The position numbers were made by a program, and so were the translations under genes. The notes under the pieces are model-generated. The model ran no database searches and had not been told where the DNA came from. It saw only the letters and a program-made list of their open reading frames with translations. Of a stretch of 35,325 nucleotides of DNA, positions 4,369-35,325 are shown piece after piece. Every line of letters starts with the position of its first letter. Within the stretch, counting starts at the first letter, position 1. Source of the DNA: a virus; the IMG/VR virus record IMGVR_UViG_3300045988_166883, positions 1-35,325 of that record. One strand, written 5' to 3'.

Positions 4369-4611
4369 CTATTCCCCTTTGATTTCGGCTATGAGCTTCT
4401 CTATCGAAGCTTTCTTGAATCTAGCCTCGATTGCCTTTCTCTTGGATGAAGGGATGCGGTCTTCTCTAAACCAGTTGGTAAGAGTCTGAGGCGTGCAGTC
4501 GAGAACATTGACAGCGTACTGAATCAAGGTCAAATCCTTTTCCTTCATATCATCGGAAATCTTGATAAGCAACTTGTCGGTGATGTTTCTTTTCTTTGCT
4601 TTTCTACCCAT
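4369..4611 (-). CDS. small helix-turn-helix DNA-binding regulator
   Basis: ORF-track 4369..4692 trimmed to internal ATG 4611 (MGRKAKKRN...), which has a perfect SD AGGAGG 8 nt upstream; 80 aa; HTH-like segment LTLIQYAVNVLDCTPQTLTNWF; the promoter lies immediately upstream. Confidence 0.6.
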   Translation of the reverse strand: MGRKAKKRNITDKLLIKISDDMKEKDLTLIQYAVNVLDCTPQTLTNWFREDRIPSSKRKAIEARFKKASIEKLIAEIKGE

Positions 4612-4636
4612 TCTTTTAATCCTCCTAACGCTTGCT

Positions 4637-4664
4637 ATTATAAGCAATTTATAAAATAATGCAA
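4637..4664 (-). promoter_or_regulatory. sigma70-type promoter for the HTH/recombination operon (TTGCAT - 16 - TATAAT)
   Basis: Minus strand: TTGCAT TATTTTATAAATTGCT TATAAT, then AGGAGG and ATG 4611. The spacer carries the ATTTTATAAA motif shared with other promoters in this genome. Confidence 0.5.
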
Positions 4665-4876
4665 TAGTTTTTGATAAAAAATAAAAAAGCACCTACAAGA
4701 TGCTCTTTGTTAAGTCTATTTTTCATCCTGTCCTTTGCATCCATTCCGCATTTTTGGAAGATGATTTCTTCCAACGCCTCTTCGTTGATTTGGTCATTGC
4801 CCATTGGCATCACGACATACCAATCATCGCCAAGAAGAATGTGCCTTGCCCATTCGCAAAACTCCGCATCTGTCAT
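4649..4876 (-). CDS. hypothetical small protein (75 aa)
   Basis: ORF-track 4649..4888 starts with TTG; first ATG at 4876 (MTDAEFCEWARHILLGDDWYVVMPMGND...); weak RBS; 3' end overlaps the downstream promoter. Coding status uncertain. Confidence 0.3.
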   Translation of the reverse strand: MTDAEFCEWARHILLGDDWYVVMPMGNDQINEEALEEIIFQKCGMDAKDRMKNRLNKEHLVGAFLFFIKNYCIIL

Positions 4877-4929
4877 TCCGACTGGCAAGATATTGTCCTT
4901 GTCCTCTCTTTTGGCGTATTTTCTTCATC

Positions 4930-4962
4930 TTTATTTTCTCTGTTTTCAATTTGTCTTATAAT
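4930..4962 (+). promoter_or_regulatory. putative promoter of the plus-strand cassette (-10 TATAAT at 4957-4962, weak -35 TTCTCT)
   Basis: tctgttttcaatttgtcTTATAATcatatagagg 20 nt before ATG 4983; divergent from the minus-strand promoter region. Confidence 0.35.
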
Positions 4963-4982
4963 CATATAGAGGTTTTTGAATT

Positions 4983-5291
4983 ATGAAAAACGATTGGGAT
5001 GCAATGAAGGACAGCTATTTCCTAAACAAGAACGCATCGTATCACAGATGGATTATATCCAAGGAAACAGCCGAGGAAATCAAGGATAGGGGGTATCTCC
5101 ATCTCGATGGAAAGTTGTTCGTGTACAAGGATGGAAAGTACTATATCGAGACCAAATCGAACAAGCTCTTTCCAGTCAAGGTGGAGGGAACTAAGGTCAA
5201 GCTCTCCGATGACTTGCAACACGAGATAAACAACCTTGCAAGATGCGTTAATCTTGCCAAGCGTAGAAAGGAAAAGAACGAAATCAAATGA
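4983..5291 (+). CDS. hypothetical protein (102 aa), first gene of the only plus-strand cassette
   Basis: ATG 4983, AGAGG upstream; its stop overlaps the start of the next gene (ATGA at 5288-5291), indicating translational coupling. Confidence 0.55.
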   Translation: MKNDWDAMKDSYFLNKNASYHRWIISKETAEEIKDRGYLHLDGKLFVYKDGKYYIETKSNKLFPVKVEGTKVKLSDDLQHEINNLARCVNLAKRRKEKNEIK

Positions 5292-5614
5292 CACCAGAGC
5301 ATAAGCTGATGAATCAAGTCCGCCTTGAATGCTCCAAGCGTGGATATGTCGTAATCCGTATGAATGTGTTCAAGGGTGTCCTCATAGACCCTAACGGAAA
5401 CGATAGATATATGGACAGCGGAATCCCCGAGGGATTTCCAGACCTTATGGTGCTGAGGAGTGATGGAAAGGCGTGTTTTGTGGAGACTAAAATACATCCA
5501 AGGAAACCCACAAAGATTCAACTTCAGAGGCAGGAACTTCTCAGATCGCTTGGCTATCGAGCTGGAACGGCGTACACTGTCGATGAGGCTATGGCGATAA
5601 TAGAAAAGGACTAG
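5288..5614 (+). CDS. VRR-NUC domain nuclease
   Basis: 108 aa; PD-(D/E)XK VRR-NUC signature GFPDLMVLRSDGKACFVETKIHPRKPTKIQLQ (G-x-PD...E-x-K...Q). Confidence 0.7.
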   Translation: MTPEHKLMNQVRLECSKRGYVVIRMNVFKGVLIDPNGNDRYMDSGIPEGFPDLMVLRSDGKACFVETKIHPRKPTKIQLQRQELLRSLGYRAGTAYTVDEAMAIIEKD

Positions 5615-10173: not shown

Positions 10174-11391
10174 TTATGCCTTTCCTATTGCTATCCACAA
10201 TATGTTGCTTATCTCGCCTGCCGAATTGTAGTATGAGAAACTGCTCCCAGTCAGATCTGTGAGTACCTGTCCGTTTCTGTACTCGATTGCAATGCTTTTG
10301 TTCGTATTCTGCATAACCACAGTAGGATGACAGTCGAACGATTTGGGGAACGATACTGTTGTGGTCGTGTCGTTTCCCACCGATGCAGGATGACATACAC
10401 CCCAGCATATGAGAATATTTCCTATCTGGACATAGGAACTCATAGTTAATTTTGTAATCGGAGTCATATCGTATCCTGCCCCCTGCATTATCTTGAGATG
10501 GTGCAACAAGGCGGTCGGGCTGAATGCAGCAGGTATGTACATCGTACCCGTTTTGCTGTTTTGGAAAGAAAGCTCAGAACCCATATTGATTTTGTTGGGG
10601 CTTGCACTTATCTTGCACCAACCCCAAGTGATGTTTCCCGTAGCTCCGTTGGATACGCTCCATTTGTTAAGCCAGGCATTCTCGTTTCCAAAGAACGAAC
10701 GGATATATAAATAGTTTTGGCTGTCGGGGAAATATATCTGGACAAAGCTTTTGTTGTCTCCACCGCTTGTGGCTGTGACTGTACTATCATTGTAATATTG
10801 GACAATAGTTCCCCATTGGTATGCATCCGAAGGAAGTCCGAATTTGGCAACCGCACCATCGATTATATAATATCCAGACCTTCTGTTCTCAGCATCCGTA
10901 GGCTTGGATTGGATGAAATTAAATTTCTTAAAATCACCACTATCACCACCACTATCACCACTGGACTGAAAAAGCGAGAATATAGCCTTGGCTGTAGCAA
11001 GTTGCTTGTCAGTAGAGCTTGAATCTATGGAATTGACTATATTGTCCACGGGATAATCAGTGTCATCAAGTCTGCCTCTTCCTATATGCACTCCATCATC
11101 ATCGACTTGGAACATATTGAAGTCTTCTCTGGTGTCCACTGTGAATCCACAATCGCCCAATTGAACGGAATATATGCTGTCTGGTGCAAGCAACTCCCAA
11201 GCCCTTCCGTGATTGGTGTAATTGCTGATACTCCACGATAGTTTATCGCCTATATATAAGTAAGCCGCCTTTATCGTATTGAATGTCTTAGTTCCTGTGA
11301 TGCTCTGTGCCGATGAGAAATTGACATACTTGTCATCGAATTCACCTTCCGTAGGTATCTTGTATACATTGTATTTGGCTGAGTTTGCCAT
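10174..11391 (-). CDS. tail fibre / receptor-binding protein
   Basis: ORF-track 10174..11409 begins with TTG; ATG 11391 (MANSAKYNVYKIP...) has GGGAGGA upstream; N-terminal FSSAQSITGTKTF matches the conserved Q-x-I-x-G-x-K-T-F tail-fibre motif; (GDS)n repeat; Ser/Thr/Asn/Gly-rich. Confidence 0.65.
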   Translation of the reverse strand: MANSAKYNVYKIPTEGEFDDKYVNFSSAQSITGTKTFNTIKAAYLYIGDKLSWSISNYTNHGRAWELLAPDSIYSVQLGDCGFTVDTREDFNMFQVDDDGVHIGRGRLDDTDYPVDNIVNSIDSSSTDKQLATAKAIFSLFQSSGDSGGDSGDFKKFNFIQSKPTDAENRRSGYYIIDGAVAKFGLPSDAYQWGTIVQYYNDSTVTATSGGDNKSFVQIYFPDSQNYLYIRSFFGNENAWLNKWSVSNGATGNITWGWCKISASPNKINMGSELSFQNSKTGTMYIPAAFSPTALLHHLKIMQGAGYDMTPITKLTMSSYVQIGNILICWGVCHPASVGNDTTTTVSFPKSFDCHPTVVMQNTNKSIAIEYRNGQVLTDLTGSSFSYYNSAGEISNILWIAIGKA

Positions 11392-25858: not shown

Positions 25859-26026
25859 TTGTGTCAAACCTCCATATACAAAATATTATAAGGCAAATAA
25901 AAAGAGTTTGGATAAAAATCCAAACTCTAGAACAGCTTGACCTGCACATAATCCACCAGATCGCAATCCTGCTCCTTAGGCACATACAAGCCCTCTATCT
26001 TGTCATCGTAATGATTCGCACCCCTG

Positions 26027-26239
26027 TCACTCATATTTCTTCTTTATTGCCTCCCCTTCCAAATCCACTATCTCGCTAAGGAACACCCTTATGAAATCCT
26101 TGCTTATAAGACTTCGATTTATGCCCCTCTCATTTATTATCTTCTTGACTGGCTCACAGTTCAAGAACCAAAACTGAGTGGGTTTCTTGAAATAGTCTCC
26201 ATACTTGCTTCTATCCATAATTATGTAATCAGCTTTCAA
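26027..26239 (-). pseudogene. TTG-initiated 70-aa frame; with the upstream +1 frame and in-frame stops it looks like a disrupted gene
   Basis: The upstream frame (…MGYDGIDVDCVKTDHTDYVMDLLAEMDKWEKFDEIKQDDSLHKI*) joins this frame after a 1-nt shift; further in-frame TAG and TGA stops upstream. Confidence 0.3.
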
Positions 26240-26681
26240 ATCTTATGCAAGGAATCATCCTGCTTTATCTCATCGAATTTCTCCCATTTATCCATCTCGG
26301 CAAGCAAGTCCATCACATAGTCCGTATGATCTGTCTTCACACAATCGACATCTATTCCATCATAGCCCATCTCTTTCTCGACATCCTTTCTGCTCGAACA
26401 AATTCCATATTCTCATAATCCCTAGTGTCCTCCTATGTACCCAAAACACGCTAATAATTTTCTTATGGTCGCATCATTGAAATAAGTCGCAGTCATATAT
26501 TCGCCCTCAAGACAATCGGAAATATCGTATTTGAGCAACAGTCTCCAATATCTCATTATAGTGTTCCTTGATAGTCTCATCTTACGAGTGCAATAACCAC
26601 GCTTAGCACCTACAAAATCAGTTCGTATGACTATCCGGATTTCTCACAAACTCCTTTATTTCCTCATATCATTATCCCCTC

Positions 26682-27035
26682 TCAATATTCCATATAGTAC
26701 ATCTTCATCTTCAGCTGTCTTCCCCTCTTGTCCGTATTCACAGCATCGAAATCGAATATGAGCATTCCTGTCGCCTCGTGTACAACACCTCTAGACAGCT
26801 TCAACATACTCATTGCACCCAATATGAACGCCATATCCCTCTTGAAATCATCAGCACTGGTGCATTCTCTATCAAATACTTTGGCATCCACATCAATCAC
26901 CTTGGTGCTACTGCCATCCAAGTACCACTTCTTCACAACCACTATCTTCTTCACATTGTTCATCATATAGTCCAAATTGAAACATTTGCTGAAATCACGC
27001 ATCTTCCCTAGCCTCCCTATTGCTTTTACAAACAT
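26682..27035 (-). CDS. hypothetical protein (117 aa; 106 aa from the second Met), possibly a remnant
   Basis: Longest frame in the degenerate block; no recognisable motifs. Confidence 0.3.
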   Translation of the reverse strand: MFVKAIGRLGKMRDFSKCFNLDYMMNNVKKIVVVKKWYLDGSSTKVIDVDAKVFDRECTSADDFKRDMAFILGAMSMLKLSRGVVHEATGMLIFDFDAVNTDKRGRQLKMKMYYMEY

Positions 27036-27563
27036 TTCAGCCGTTTCTTTTTCATAATTTCCCTGATATATTCATCATTCATTTCTTCAAACTCCTTTGG
27101 AATCTCTTCATTTTGCCTCTTCCGCCTCCCACGCAAGCAAACTTCTCCTTGCCTATTTTGCTATAACCAGATCTCTTCATCATCTTCCTTCAAGGAAACG
27201 ACATCCCACTTTATAAACAAAGCCAAAATGTTCCAAACATATATGCCAATCAAAAAAAACTCTTGATATTAAAAGTATCTTTGTCGTCGATTATATAGTT
27301 CTGCTAATCTCCCTCAAAAACATCACATATCTCTCTAAATCTAAACGCTCTTCCAATAGACTCATTCTTTCTATGTTCCACAGTCACGCCGAACAAAGCA
27401 TTCATCCTCTCACAGATATATTCCACAGTCCTTGCCATTGCCACATATAATATGCAGTCTCTCATCATCCCTGTCATTCCAATCTTCCATTTCTGTGTCC
27501 TCCTATATCAAACTAATATTCCTTAACTTAATCTCATCCCTATATGTCCTCCTGACATCTACA

Positions 27564-27591
27564 ATTATACGCTTTTTGTAAAATTATGCAA
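27564..27591 (-). promoter_or_regulatory. sigma70-type promoter (TTGCAT - 16 - TATAAT)
   Basis: Minus strand: TTGCAT AATTTTACAAAAAGCG TATAAT, followed by AGGAGG. Confidence 0.5.
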
Positions 27592-27610
27592 CACATTTTT
27601 ATAAAATTAT

Positions 27611-27634
27611 AAAAAACACGGGTCTCCCCGTGTT
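27611..27634 (-). terminator. intrinsic terminator after terL
   Basis: Minus strand: AACACGGG gaga CCCGTGTT followed by TTTTTT. Confidence 0.65.
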
Positions 27635-27689
27635 ATTCCCAATATCGCCACCCACCCATATCCATTTATGGATACACACAAATTATAAC

Positions 27690-29821: not shown

Positions 29822-29845
29822 ATCGTGTGTCCTCCTTACCGCCTC

Positions 29846-29857
29846 TATTATACACGC
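29846..29857 (-). promoter_or_regulatory. extended -10 promoter (TGTATAAT) for terS/terL
   Basis: Minus strand: ttggcgTGTATAATagaggcggtAAGGAGGacacacgatATG; no good -35. Confidence 0.4.
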
Positions 29858-29887
29858 CAAAATAACCCCTAATACCCCTCATTCTCG

Positions 29888-30227
29888 GACATAGTGGACA
29901 CACTTGACACCCTTTTTTAAATCTTTCTCTATATATATCCCCTATATTCTTTACATATATGCTATATTGTTATACACTTTTTTTTTCTTGATAATAGTTT
30001 ATGGAAAAACTATGTCAACTATGTCTTAAATCCAAAAAATGCCGATGAATACTAGCTTTTTTTGTGACATAGTTGCTATCTCAAACTATGTCCTAACTAT
30101 GTCCTAACTATGTACTTTATCTCATACTGTGAGATATCTGTATTATCTGTACTATGTCCAACTATGTCCTAAAAACTATGCTTTTTCTTTACTAAATCGC
30201 TATTTTGTTATATGCCTAGGACATAGT
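29888..30227. repeat. iteron array: about 11 copies of ACTATGTC / GACATAGT in both orientations (candidate pac/cos-binding or origin repeats)
   Basis: Copies at ~29888, 30009, 30018, 30066, 30085, 30096, 30107 (variant), 30151, 30161, 30175 (variant), 30220; also the palindrome AGATATCT at ~30131. No ORF on either strand. Confidence 0.7.
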
Positions 30228-30291
30228 TTATTCGGGGGTAAAATCACACCCCTACACACCCATCCACTCAGTTTATTCGGGGGTAAAATCA
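30225..30291. repeat. two 22-bp direct repeats AGTTTATTCGGGGGTAAAATCA (30225-30246, 30270-30291) in a C-rich repeat block
   Basis: Exact duplication 45 bp apart; nearby CCCCTACACACCCA x2 (30249, 30337), TGTGATT x3, C9 tract 30472-30480. Confidence 0.7.
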
Positions 30292-30640
30292 GCCCTTAAT
30301 CGTCCCCACAATCAGCCCTGTGATTCCTCTTTCTAACCCCTACACACCCATAATCCCCACTGTGATTATTCCCCCCGTGATTATCAACAGCACCCCCCTT
30401 TTTTTATATCCCCTGTGTTTAAGGGAATAGCTTTTAGTCTTGGCTGTCCCTTCACCCGTACCATTATTTATCCCCCCCCTATTACTGACCTTTTCGATAT
30501 TCTTTTAACGGATAGTGGAGGGGCTATTTAAGGCGACGGCATTGGGGAATTTTTGGGACATTGCTATTTGAAAGTGGGGGAAAATCCTTAAAAAAAATAA
30601 TGAAAGCGGATTAAATCTAATTACTAATTTTTTGGTAGGC

Positions 30641-30695
30641 TAGTAGTAAATTAGTAGTAAATTAGTAGTAAATTAGTAGTAAATTAGTAGTAAAT
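30641..30695. repeat. 11-bp tandem repeat TAGTAGTAAAT x5
   Basis: Five perfect head-to-tail units immediately abutting the A-run of the island terminator. Confidence 0.85.
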
Positions 30696-30696
30696 T

Positions 30697-30725
30697 AAAA
30701 AAAACCGCCAGAACGTGAGGCGGTT
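30697..30725 (-). terminator. intrinsic terminator of the 157-aa island gene
   Basis: Minus strand: AACCGCC tcacgttct GGCGGTT followed by TTTTTTTT. Confidence 0.65.
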
Positions 30726-30743
30726 AGATGGTTGGGGTTACTG

Positions 30744-31217
30744 CTAGTTTAATCTAATTTGCTTACAATCGATGTCTTTAGTAATATAGCTTTTGTTAAA
30801 TTGATCTCTGTCTTTCAACATATCTTCGAGAGAATTATAAACAGTTGCGACACAAAAATCATATTTGTTATATTGGAAGTACTTTTTAACTGTTCTTTTC
30901 GATGTATCGTATCTTATCGCAATATAAACAGCTTCTTTGTTTTCATCTTCGAAAAAATAGGCGATTTGTAAAGTTGTGAAATTAAAAGTGTTGTAAGATG
31001 TAACAATATGTAAATATTTAACATTCTTCCCGCTTTTTTCCTTCAAAATGTTTCTTTCGGTGGAAAAATCGATTGCATCTTTAAGATTTGCTGTTAATTT
31101 TGCGTTGCTGCATTTTTTATAGCAATCGCTCAACTTAAATCTTAGTTTGCCAAAATCAACCTTTTTGTAAATCAAATCAACAGCGTAATTTAATAGACTT
31201 CTTGCTTTTTTTGTCAT
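30744..31217 (-). CDS. hypothetical island protein D (157 aa), own promoter/palindrome and terminator
   Basis: ATG 31217, SD GGAGGAAAA; Lys/Tyr/Phe/Asn-rich; no recognisable motif; about 33% GC. Confidence 0.55.
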   Translation of the reverse strand: MTKKARSLLNYAVDLIYKKVDFGKLRFKLSDCYKKCSNAKLTANLKDAIDFSTERNILKEKSGKNVKYLHIVTSYNTFNFTTLQIAYFFEDENKEAVYIAIRYDTSKRTVKKYFQYNKYDFCVATVYNSLEDMLKDRDQFNKSYITKDIDCKQIRLN

Positions 31218-31244
31218 AGTTTTCCTCCAACTGTCCGATTTGGA

Positions 31245-31301
31245 TAGTTAGTTAGTTCTTCTAACTAAGTAATATTATACTATTATTTTACAAATAATCA
31301 A
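31245..31301 (-). promoter_or_regulatory. promoter (TTGATT - 16 - TATAAT) with palindrome TTAGTTAG-ttctt-CTAACTAA at +1..+25; copy 1 of a duplicated ~85-bp cassette
   Basis: -35 31296-31301, -10 31274-31279, inverted repeat 31248-31268; about 88% identical to 31828-31903. Confidence 0.55.
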
Positions 31302-31441
31302 GCATTATTTATAAAATATTTTATGTTTCATATATTGCATTTTGTAGAATATGTAAGATTTTACAGATCGCCAAAAAGTCCCTATCGGATTTTAAAAAAC
31401 CTAATTTTAATGATATTTCAGTCTTGAAAACTGCGATTGAT

Positions 31442-31480
31442 AAAAAAATAGGAATATGCACAGATCATCGCATATTCCTA
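31442..31480 (-). terminator. intrinsic terminator of the 86-aa island gene
   Basis: Minus strand: TAGGAATATGC gatgatctgt GCATATTCCTA (11-bp perfect stem) followed by TTTTTTT; a C7 tract (31492-31498 on plus as G7) lies between stop and hairpin. Confidence 0.65.
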
Positions 31481-31515
31481 TATAAGAAAATGGGGGGGAT
31501 ATTTTTAAATAATTA

Positions 31516-31776
31516 TTAATAGTTAACAATCATTGTTACAATTTTATAATCAAATATTATTGTTGATTTTTCTGTTTTTTTTGTTGAATTCCAAGAAAAG
31601 CCAAGATTGATGTCATCGGCTTTTATTCCATATGCTTTTTTAACATAATTTCTTAAATGTTCAATTTTTGAAAACTTTGGGCAAGAACCATATATTAATG
31701 ATGTTCCTCCGATTGGGTTTCCTGTTTCGTCGTATTCGTGCCAGCCTTTTGCAATAGTAAATAATTTTTGTTTCAT
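31516..31776 (-). CDS. hypothetical island protein C (86 aa)
   Basis: ATG 31776; RBS region contains a small hairpin GGAGGaaaataaCCTCC; no recognisable motif. Confidence 0.5.
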   Translation of the reverse strand: MKQKLFTIAKGWHEYDETGNPIGGTSLIYGSCPKFSKIEHLRNYVKKAYGIKADDINLGFSWNSTKKTEKSTIIFDYKIVTMIVNY

Positions 31777-31827
31777 TTTGTGCCTTTCACGGAGGTTATT
31801 TTCCTCCAGATCTCTTTAATTCCGAGA

Positions 31828-31883
31828 CCTAGTTAGTTCTTTCTAACTAAGTATTATTATACTACTATTTATAAAATAGTCAA
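31828..31883 (-). promoter_or_regulatory. promoter (TTGACT - 17 - TATAAT) with palindrome TAGTTAG-ttcttt-CTAACTA; copy 2 of the duplicated cassette
   Basis: -35 31878-31883, -10 31855-31860, inverted repeat 31829-31848; similarity to copy 1 ends exactly at the helicase stop codon (31903). Confidence 0.55.
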
Positions 31884-31902
31884 GCATTATTTATAAAATA
31901 TT

Positions 31903-33687: not shown

Positions 33688-33968
33688 GCGTTTTTTACAA
33701 AATTATTTTATTTTTCATATATCCGATGAAGACAGTACATTGCAACAATAAAACAGCCATGTTTGGCGGTTGTTGACATCTGGGGGGTATGAAAAAGTGG
33801 GGTGCGGATTTTGGAATACCTGAAATTGTTGTCCGTGATTATCCTAAACAGCCCACAATCGTTGATTTTTGCCTTGTTTTAGCCACGAGATTAATCAAGA
33901 GGTATAAATATATGCCTAAATGGAATCATGTGCCTAGAATCGCTTGTTTTGAGGGGGGGGATATGTCG

Positions 33969-34016
33969 AAAACGAAAAACGGAGTTCCGTGGAAGGAACT
34001 CCGCCGAAAGGAGTTC
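33969..34016 (-). terminator. terminator with three-arm alternative pairing (GGAGTTCC / GGAACTCC / GGAGTTC) after the 267-aa gene
   Basis: Minus strand: GGAGTTCC ttccac GGAACTCC followed by GTTTTTCGTTTTCG. A third arm upstream of the hairpin on the minus strand allows a mutually exclusive hairpin. A G8 tract (33953-33960) lies just 3' of the terminator and a G7 tract (34123-34129) between the stop codon and the terminator. Confidence 0.5.
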
Positions 34017-34135
34017 ATCTAGGAATCTAGAAAATCCTGGATAGCTTTTTCAATGAAAAATCGTAATGACAGATGCCTGAAAGCATCATATGTATTTTAT
34101 AGAAACATCGTGCGGAAAGCAAGGGGGGGATTTTG

Positions 34136-34939: not shown

Positions 34940-35325
34940 CGTTTGTGTCCTCCGCCATTGCTCTAGCCATCTGTGCCTTGTTTTTGTCGATAGACTTGTT
35001 GGCAAGCCTAAGTCCGAAATAGACAGTCATATGGTTGACTCTTGCCTTCTTGAACTTCTTACGCATCGACTTTCCCCAGATAGTCTGGGATAGCTTGGGC
35101 TGATTCTCCTTCAATGCCCATGTGATGAAGCTGTTATACAGCTCGCTTGCTGTGTTGGGGAAATCCTCTGGAGCTGTGTCCGTGCATTCATCAAGCCATA
35201 TCTGAATCTCATCGGATTCTTCCTTGTATTCGTTTGTCAAATCGAGTGAACACTGAGGAATATCCGCAAGACCTTTCTTGAAATACATCTTTGCCCCATC
35301 GATAAGCCACGCAAGGATCTGTGGA
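34923..35325 (-). CDS. 3' end (C-terminal ~134 aa) of the same primase/helicase gene
   Basis: ORF-track frame 34923..35288 continues upstream to the window edge without a stop. Bases 35185-35325 are identical to 1-141, so this is the tail of the gene whose 5' part is 1..2132. Confidence 0.8.
   Translation of the reverse strand, partial: PQILAWLIDGAKMYFKKGLADIPQCSLDLTNEYKEESDEIQIWLDECTDTAPEDFPNTASELYNSFITWALKENQPKLSQTIWGKSMRKKFKKARVNHMTVYFGLRLANKSIDKNKAQMARAMAEDTNDENEI
35185..35325. repeat. 141-bp terminal duplication (identical to 1..141): circular contig overlap or terminal redundancy
   Basis: Direct comparison of the window ends: cattcatcaagccatatctg...gcaaggatctgtgga occurs at both. Confidence 0.9.

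Follow-up and report, generated by a model that had tools for sequence, protein, structure and literature searches.

The present analysis concerns the virus record IMGVR_UViG_3300045988_166883 of IMG/VR, a stretch of 35,325 nucleotides (positions 1 to 35,325 of the record, hereafter the window), in which an array of short repeats (iterons) lies directly before terS, the predicted gene of the small terminase subunit (TerS). It is almost certain that this array is a protein-binding cis element under selection. The chances appear to be even that it serves as the replication origin of the phage, of the type used by a self-loading primase-helicase. The origin is favoured because of the layout of the array, the type of the encoded helicase, the pattern of protein conservation and a comparison with homologous helicases, and it is on these grounds that we infer binding of the helicase to the iterons, melting of the spacer between them and origin activity.

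Layout and conservation of the iteron array

The octamer ACTATGTC has nine exact copies in the window when both strands are counted, and all nine are situated within 29888-30227. The mean expectation is 1.09 copies, and none of 100 dinucleotide-preserving shuffles reached nine. If the 10-mer AACTATGTCC is matched with a tolerance of two mismatches, 11 copies are counted within 29887-30228, compared with 49 genome-wide. Of these 11, seven belong to the + strand and four to the - strand, in agreement with the preliminary description of this DNA, which had reported about 11 iterons in both orientations upstream of terS. Two weaker copies with three mismatches start at 30174 and 29990. The tandem copies follow each other at 9 bp (the pair 30008/30017), 11 bp (the triplet 30084/30095/30106) and 10 bp (the pair 30150/30160). 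As was found by an unbiased scan for clustered 7- to 9-mers, the array ranks first in the genome; it is the sole strong iteron cluster of the complete 35.2-kb genome, and a search of the other gaps of the replication module for repeats found none. The same description had called the 340-bp stretch free of open reading frames (ORFs), which holds for ORFs of at least 60 amino acids (aa), the only ORF being a 56-aa GTG ORF on the + strand (30129-30299). The central palindrome that it had pointed out, AGATATCT, can be found at 30132-30139, but it probably has no importance, because all four of the closest relatives read AGATACCT there.

The core of the array consists of two iterons on the - strand (29887-29905), a 102-bp spacer with 20% GC and two inverted iterons on the + strand (30008-30026). 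At the terS-proximal pair, 18 nt are 83% complementary to 30008-30025 and form the inverted repeat I2. The spacer is the fourth least stable 100-bp segment genome-wide (top 0.3%). In the Staphylococcus aureus pathogenicity islands (SaPIs), the origin comprises 6-12 short iterons and a central AT-rich region with at least two opposed iterons on each side, and it is read by the winged helix of the Rep protein (PMC9371898). Both features of the SaPI type are found in the window, where 11 copies accompany the 102-bp AT-rich spacer and at least two opposed iterons stand on each side of it, as seen in I2.

The same array occurs in four IMG/VR contigs of one metagenome. A whole-gap alignment of the window with these four relatives demonstrated that a block of ~360 bp, from GAATAAACTATGTCC to CCACTATGTCCGAG, is almost invariant in all five phages, and that its flanks, the upstream G-rich DNA and the downstream terS leader, contain many substitutions and indels. 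The TerS homologues of the protein collection form 110 clusters at 90% identity, nearly all more than 77% identical, and the divergent loci used for comparison were those of the four most divergent clusters, with TerS identities of 64, 71, 54 and 46%. In all four the array precedes terS and its parts follow in the same order. This order begins with an iteron triplet (10-12 bp spacing), a degenerate inverted copy and an element made up of an A-tract, TAGTATTCATCGG and a T-tract, which is missing only in the most distant relative; it continues with an iteron pair or triplet (9 bp), an AT-rich spacer of 75-110 bp and two to three inverted copies, and it ends with a G-rich leader followed by TATAAT.

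The inverted arrangement around the spacer is kept in L124, L127, L130 and L137. The terS-proximal pair is preserved as GTGTC(A)AGTGTGTCC(ACTATGTCC)GAG where TerS identity is 46-64%, and the triplet is kept in every relative, reading ATACATAGTT three times in the one with 46% TerS identity. The non-iteron element, A6-TGCCGATGAATACTAGC-T7 in the window, is kept in L124, L127 and L130, the last of which has it in duplicate, and L137 lacks it. In the most distant relative (46% TerS identity) the motif has shifted from GGACATAGTT to TACATAGTT. The contigs of this changed-motif lineage, P0110, are no longer than 3.5 kb and carry no primase gene; a search with TACATAGTT returned only an unrelated simple repeat (L139), and no relative of the P0110 TerS was found in IMG/VR. 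Pattern scans of metagenome and genome collections added two more close relatives. Most of the other matches appear to be unrelated tandem repeats and showed no similarity to the window at the protein level. Neither a prophage nor a plasmid copy was detected in 185,579 species genomes, and no host was found there.

Two promoter-like sequences belong to this region. The junction of the iteron pair at 30008-30026 reads TTGACA on the - strand and supplies the -35 of a sigma-70-like promoter directed toward terS, which is kept in the four close relatives and has a poor -10 in the distant ones. All relatives have a second TATAAT, at the extended -10 position next to the ribosome-binding site of terS, and it is not accompanied by a good -35.

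The primase-helicase as candidate initiator

The candidate reader of the iterons is a primase-helicase of 797 aa, in which Pfam recognises the NrS-1 HBD, D5_N and DUF5906 (SF3 helicase) domains. The model of its C-terminal 320 residues, with a predicted local distance difference test score (pLDDT) of 92, ends in a helix-helix-beta-hairpin unit, and the Foldseek search with this model retrieved SaPI5 PriRep (7OLA, E 4e-12), the PrimPol of African swine fever virus (ASFV) and E5 of monkeypox virus (MPXV). The SaPI initiator is likewise an SF3-type helicase that has a winged helix at its C-terminus, and in SaPI5 it is fused to a primase (PMC9371898).

TerS and the primase-helicase are both present in every relative whose contig reaches far enough. 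The 157-aa and 86-aa genes were rejected as iteron binders, being absent from all relatives, and the SF2 helicase was rejected because it is absent from L004. With these genes excluded and the 289-aa gene poorly conserved, TerS and the primase-helicase remain as possible readers. The preliminary description had named the 267-aa gene (267/289-aa) beside the primase as an example of a possible initiator, a suggestion that does not agree with its identity of only 34% in L136, a relative with an unchanged motif. In the same relative, residues 736-765 of the helicase, corresponding to the recognition helix and the wing, are 87% identical versus 63% for the protein overall, a level equal to that of the Walker A and B segments. 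The replication origin, which that description had listed as an alternative, is now favoured, with the primase-helicase and not the 267/289-aa protein as its likely initiator.

The comparison with homologous helicases points in the same direction. In L303 and L304, nine copies of GGGGAGGAT in both orientations start 27 nt after the stop codon of the helicase gene. In L305, two copies of TGCAGGGTT, a 64-bp AT-rich spacer and one inverted copy start 19 nt after it. These helicases belong to the same family as that of the window (33-39% identity), and in each cluster 9-bp iterons are likewise found as tandem pairs and as inverted copies, separated by DNA that is richer in AT. The clusters differ from the window array in their position 19-27 nt after the helicase stop, far from terS, and in their motifs, which are unrelated to that of the window. 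L302 encodes a helicase of 37% identity and a TerS that is unrelated; directly before its terS, three AACTATACA-like copies stand in inverted orientation on the two sides of an AT-rich gap. This is a weak point of the comparison, since the counts are small and genome-wide not significant.

It seems that the C-terminal winged helix of the primase-helicase could read the 9-10-bp iterons. Hexamers would then form on two iteron pairs, 29887-29905 and 30008-26, inverted and facing each other across the 102-bp spacer; the spacer would melt, and the helicase's own prim-pol domain would prime synthesis. The additional iterons at 30065-30228 may represent further loading or cooperativity sites. The promoter with its -35 in an iteron pair would read through the spacer into terS. 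Since this -35 lies inside the pair and the promoter is directed into terS, initiator binding and late transcription probably affect each other.

The likeness to the SaPI system extends to the shared fold of the window helicase and SaPI5 PriRep and to the location of the element between replication and packaging genes in both. The differences are also considerable. The window iterons are 9-10 bp long versus 5-6 bp in SaPIs; the array is asymmetric, as seven additional copies stand on one side of the spacer pairs; a distance of 2-5 kb separates it from the helicase gene, which it does not directly follow; it abuts terS and holds a promoter; and the helicase is only 18-19% identical to PriRep. 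In P4 alpha and pRN1 ORF904, a primase, an SF3 helicase of the D5_N type and a C-terminal winged-helix origin-binding domain are combined in one polypeptide (PMC2777425). Database relatives of the window helicase are labelled 'phage/plasmid primase, P4 family'. At ori and at a further site, crr, phage P4 carries iterons of 8 bp in the two orientations. The window differs from P4 by its prim-pol domain, the P4 primase domain being DnaG-like, and by having no second separate iteron site like crr, as was found by the cluster scan.

Several observations weigh against an origin. The array is situated 4.7 kb downstream of the helicase gene (gene end 34926, array start 30228) and not immediately after it, and in L004 it is still ~1.5 kb past the preceding gene, variable accessory genes intervening, whereas the origins of SaPIs and of L303-L305 directly follow the helicase gene. 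As a rule, cis sites and the genes of the proteins that bind them stay together, and the array always stands ~65-200 nt from terS, whatever gene is located upstream. A near-consensus promoter reading into terS takes its -35 from one of the iteron pairs, and in L124, L130 and L137 three tandem iterons directly precede the -35-less TATAAT. Such overlap suggests a role in terS expression or packaging. Besides, the motif change in P0110 coincides with the substitutions S72G and R75T in TerS, which affect otherwise invariant residues of the recognition helix. The array might also be a shared control hub, where the same iterons load the helicase and form part of the terS promoter and packaging region, so that initiator occupancy gates late transcription or packaging, or the iteron-embedded promoter activates the origin; we regard this combination as unlikely.

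Packaging, transcription and partition as alternatives

The main alternative, which we consider less probable than an origin, is that the array represents the pac site of a phage with headful packaging. Phased iterons would be contacted by the helix-turn-helix motifs of a TerS ring, which would bend or loop the DNA, hand it to the large terminase subunit (TerL) for the first cut and control the embedded terS promoter, as proposed for SPP1. The array is 63 nt from terS in the window and adjoins terS in every relative, and its upstream neighbour varies among the relatives (the 157-aa gene, the helicase, the 289-aa gene or an ArdC-like gene). TerL of the Terminase_3/PBSX family and the circular assembly are consistent with headful packaging, not proof of it. 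The repeat region contains a promoter and overlaps that of terS, and the 9-11 bp spacing suits contacts along one face of the helix. The AlphaFold model of TerS comprises three helices, with a helix-turn-helix at residues 46-89, disordered tails and pLDDT of 85-93 for residues 41-110, and the five phages with the invariant block show no variation in the core, the helix-turn-helix included. The coincidence of motif and TerS changes in P0110 also speaks for TerS as the reader; it is a single event, and the overall identity of this TerS is 46%. Meanwhile, residues R73, T74, D77 and R78 of the modelled recognition helix vary among phages with identical iterons, and a single ring of same-oriented helix-turn-helix motifs leaves the inverted pairs around the 20% GC spacer unexplained. 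Searches with Foldseek and against PDB sequences revealed no solved small terminase that matches TerS significantly. The distant syntenic relative L310, found with a TerL profile, has no array before terS, which does not discriminate between the readings.

The pac site used for comparison is that of SPP1, with its parts pacL, pacC and pacR, which bears repeats, spans promoters and the start of the small terminase gene, and is recognised by G1P (PMC4737164). [quoted passage not shown] The window resembles SPP1 and SF6 in having a repeat region by the terS promoter, as in a headful siphovirus of the Firmicutes type. It differs in the repeats themselves, which are few and moderately conserved in SPP1, whereas the window has a 10-bp word in 11 copies, deeply conserved, with inverted pairs around an AT-rich gap. 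The nearly perfect preservation of this word across deep divergence is more typical of a sequence-specific reader than of the SPP1/SF6 TerS. Moreover, no similarity to G1P could be detected in the window TerS. In several headful phages, P22 among them, pac is located inside terS; such a location here would leave the array available for a different function. In the preliminary description, recognition by TerS had been the preferred explanation; what stands of it is that the array adjoins terS and overlaps its promoter, but it is no longer the best supported one, given the origin-like core, the conserved winged helix of the helicase and the varying TerS helix.

Two observations on TerS are recorded separately. 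The terS gene has 57-62% GC, far above the rest of the genome, and the basic N-terminal and acidic C-terminal tails of the protein contain indels between near-identical phages, the core being invariant.

It is quite unlikely that the array is solely an operator or enhancer of the late (terS) operon, bound by a phage regulator or by TerS or the helicase in a regulatory capacity only, with no direct role in replication or packaging. Its position between the terminator of the upstream operon and terS, the near-consensus promoter inside it with the -35 made by an iteron junction, and the conserved -35-less TATAAT by the terS ribosome-binding site, preceded by three tandem iterons in L124, L130 and L137, would fit such a function, as would the contig L008, where an identical 11-mer is found three times between a promoter and a small ORF. 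Nevertheless, 11 sites over 340 bp together with an AT-rich gap and its inverted flanks go far beyond the usual needs of a late promoter, no conserved candidate regulator adjoins the array (none of the relatives has the 157-aa or the 86-aa gene), and distant relatives do not preserve the -10 of the internal promoter. It is very improbable that the array is a partition centromere of the plasmid type, comparable to R1 parC or to the heptad arrays bound by omega. Tandem short repeats with 9-11 bp spacing, in both orientations around a promoter, are a layout that resembles parC. No ParA-, ParM- or ParB-like, integrase or plasmid-maintenance gene was found in the scanned ORFs of the window, a scan that left aside the head and tail genes at ~13.4-24.3 kb (about a third of the window), or among the called genes of the related loci L136 and L299, and the 185,579 species genomes contain no prophage or plasmid copy. 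The partition site mentioned in the preliminary description is therefore unlikely, with regard to the absence of a ParA-, ParM- or ParB-type gene from the parts scanned.

Arrays with the ACTATGTC core were also found beside prim-pol or helicase genes in the unrelated viral contigs L024, L026, L055, L068, L092, L115, L116, L119 and L008 (for example, at 5145-5545 in L055 and 10860-10905 in L008). In one family of such arrays (family 2), ACTATGTCGC is present in 8-10 copies, and inverted pairs flank an AT-rich gap of ~85 bp directly after the gene of an 838-aa PriCT_2/DUF5906 primase-helicase. In L008, the small ORF that follows the three 11-mers precedes a prim-pol gene with an NrS-1 HBD, and a separate array of TGTGACAAA repeats occupies 10300-10840. 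Neither the family 2 nor the L008 octamer arrays stand beside a terminase. No protein similarity was detected between these contigs and the window, and homology of the arrays was rejected because no detectable protein is shared. The common octamer is thus probably a coincidence or a result of convergence, and these arrays serve as examples of layout only.

Genome context and significance

Bases 1-141 of the window are identical to 35185-35325. The point where these ends meet falls within the primase-helicase gene, which is undivided in relatives, and the window accordingly represents an assembly that is complete and circular (35,184 bp). The largest default k-mer of MEGAHIT is 141, and the identity of the 141-bp ends suggests an assembly overlap and not a physical terminal repeat. 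A fixed genome end was considered and rejected: contig ends are scattered over many different positions upstream of terS and accordingly reflect assembly breaks. The cumulative GC skew has a minimum near 30,400; it was discarded as evidence for an origin, because the genes lie on one strand and the composition differs between modules. The nucleotide searches against cultured phages, with the array region and with 23 kb around it, gave no match, and neither did the TerS protein search against the same phages. TerL is less than 31% identical to that of the nearest cultured phages.

All genes around the array are on the - strand. An exonuclease, a Sak4-like annealing protein and an SSB (single-stranded DNA-binding protein) are encoded before the primase-helicase gene, and the 289-aa gene, the SF2 helicase gene and the 86-aa and 157-aa genes are located between it and the array. 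The likely start codon of terS is the ATG at 29824; terS is followed by the gene of the Terminase_3 large subunit and later by the portal gene. The non-coding gap comprises 29825-30743 and is wider than the stretch covered by the preliminary description. The Rfam and tRNA scans of the window gave no match, so an RNA gene is not indicated. The positions of the features are listed in the table.

Table. Positions of the iterons, promoters, genes and other features of the array region in the window.
Feature	Position	Strand	Remarks
Iterons with at most 2 mismatches to AACTATGTCC, n = 7	starts 30008, 30017, 30084, 30095, 30106, 30150, 30160	+	
Iterons with at most 2 mismatches to AACTATGTCC, n = 4	starts 29887, 29896, 30065, 30219	-	
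terS, small terminase, 209 aa	29195..29824	-	phrog_4102, E 1.8e-11; directly before the Terminase_3 large subunit
Extended -10 TGTATAAT	29847..29854	-	just 5' of the terS ribosome-binding site
Tandem iterons CACTATGTCC and AAGTGTGTCC	29887..29905	-	terS-proximal arm of the inverted pair; 1 and 2 mismatches
AT-rich spacer, 102 bp, ~20% GC	29906..30007		A-tracts; conserved motif ATATATAGA(A/G)AA; candidate DNA-unwinding region
Sigma-70-like promoter toward terS (TTGACA, 16 nt, TATTAT)	29991..30018	-	11/12 matches; -35 within the iteron pair
Tandem iterons AACTATGTCA and AACTATGTCT, 9 bp apart	30008..30026	+	distal arm of the inverted pair
Non-iteron element A6-TGCCGATGAATACTAGC-T7	30034..30063		AAAAAAAGCTAGTATTCATCGGCATTTTTT on the - strand; conserved
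Single inverted iteron AACTATGTCA	30065..30074	-	
Iteron triplet AACTATGTCC, AACTATGTCC, AACTATGTAC, 11 bp spacing	30084..30115	+	repeat family D2
Iteron pair TACTATGTCC and AACTATGTCC, 10 bp apart, then degenerate third copy AACTATGCTT	30150..30183	+	
Outermost inverted iteron AACTATGTCC	30219..30228	-	upstream edge of the block invariant among close relatives
Intrinsic terminator: 7-bp stem, 9-nt loop, U8 tail	30702..30724	-	-11.2 kcal/mol, z-score -2.9; closes the upstream replication/accessory operon
Primase-helicase, 797 aa, C-terminal part with winged helix	34923..35325	-	continues across the circular junction into 1-2180; proposed iteron reader

The part of the gap upstream of the array has its own peculiarities. 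Directly after the terminator, at 30622-30698, a second repeat is present as five tandem copies of TAGTAAATTAG with 11 bp spacing. At this site close relatives carry other tandem motifs, for example AATATCTACC and AAAATCTGCC in L002, although the primase and TerS cores of these relatives are near-identical. The region 30230-30600 is hypervariable and G-rich on the coding strand, and it contains a 22-nt direct repeat TGATTTTACCCCCGAATAAACT in two copies, ACCCCTACACACCCAT in two copies and repeated AATCACAG words. Within it, ~90 bp are kept in the four close relatives, and the end of this segment, ACACAGGGG(A/T)ATAAAAAAAGGGG, recurs in more distant ones; the segment could be a promoter of an unusual type or a further protein-binding site.

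Some other regions of the genome also attracted attention. The 157-aa and 86-aa genes with their spacers (30744-31900) have 24-29% GC versus ~44% for the genome and are absent from every relative examined, and for these reasons the block looks like a recent foreign accessory insertion. The 1.8 kb between terL and the portal gene (25868-27689) contain only small ORFs of 44-117 aa, with an extreme GC skew of -0.4 to -0.54. In relatives this slot is occupied by differing sets of 5-12 small genes, including those of an HTH_3 protein and a D12 DNA methyltransferase, and it resembles a hotspot of accessory or anti-defence genes. At 4700-5614, three small ORFs make up the only gene block of the genome on the + strand, and one of them is similar to an endonuclease or a Holliday-junction resolvase (phrog_93, phrog_5702); nearby, a 107-aa ORF on the - strand (4369-4692) has a weak match to HTH_17. 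In the 600-bp gap between the 289-aa and 64-aa genes, a 77-aa ORF was found on the + strand (33789-34022) and no repeats were found; the corresponding gap of the relative L299 is ~650 bp long and has no called genes.

The array is a known kind of element, whether it is read as an origin or as a pac site, and the phage lineage is uncultured. The analysis provides an uncultured but widespread lineage of 35-kb phages with a concrete cis element, together with a candidate reader, the winged helix of a D5/PriRep-like primase-helicase. Homologues of its TerS are present in many public assemblies, the source of which, where stated, is a human-gut sample. Under either reading the element is useful for annotation, for vector building and for the interpretation of local assembly breaks. 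If the array is a pac site, it would be an unusually sequence-defined TerS site, and if it is a shared hub, replication would be coupled directly to the start of packaging in this lineage. If it is an origin, the SaPI-type arrangement of inverted iterons around an AT-rich spacer would extend to true phages with D5_N/DUF5906 replicases, and such an origin could be located several kilobases from the gene of its initiator, at the boundary of the packaging module.

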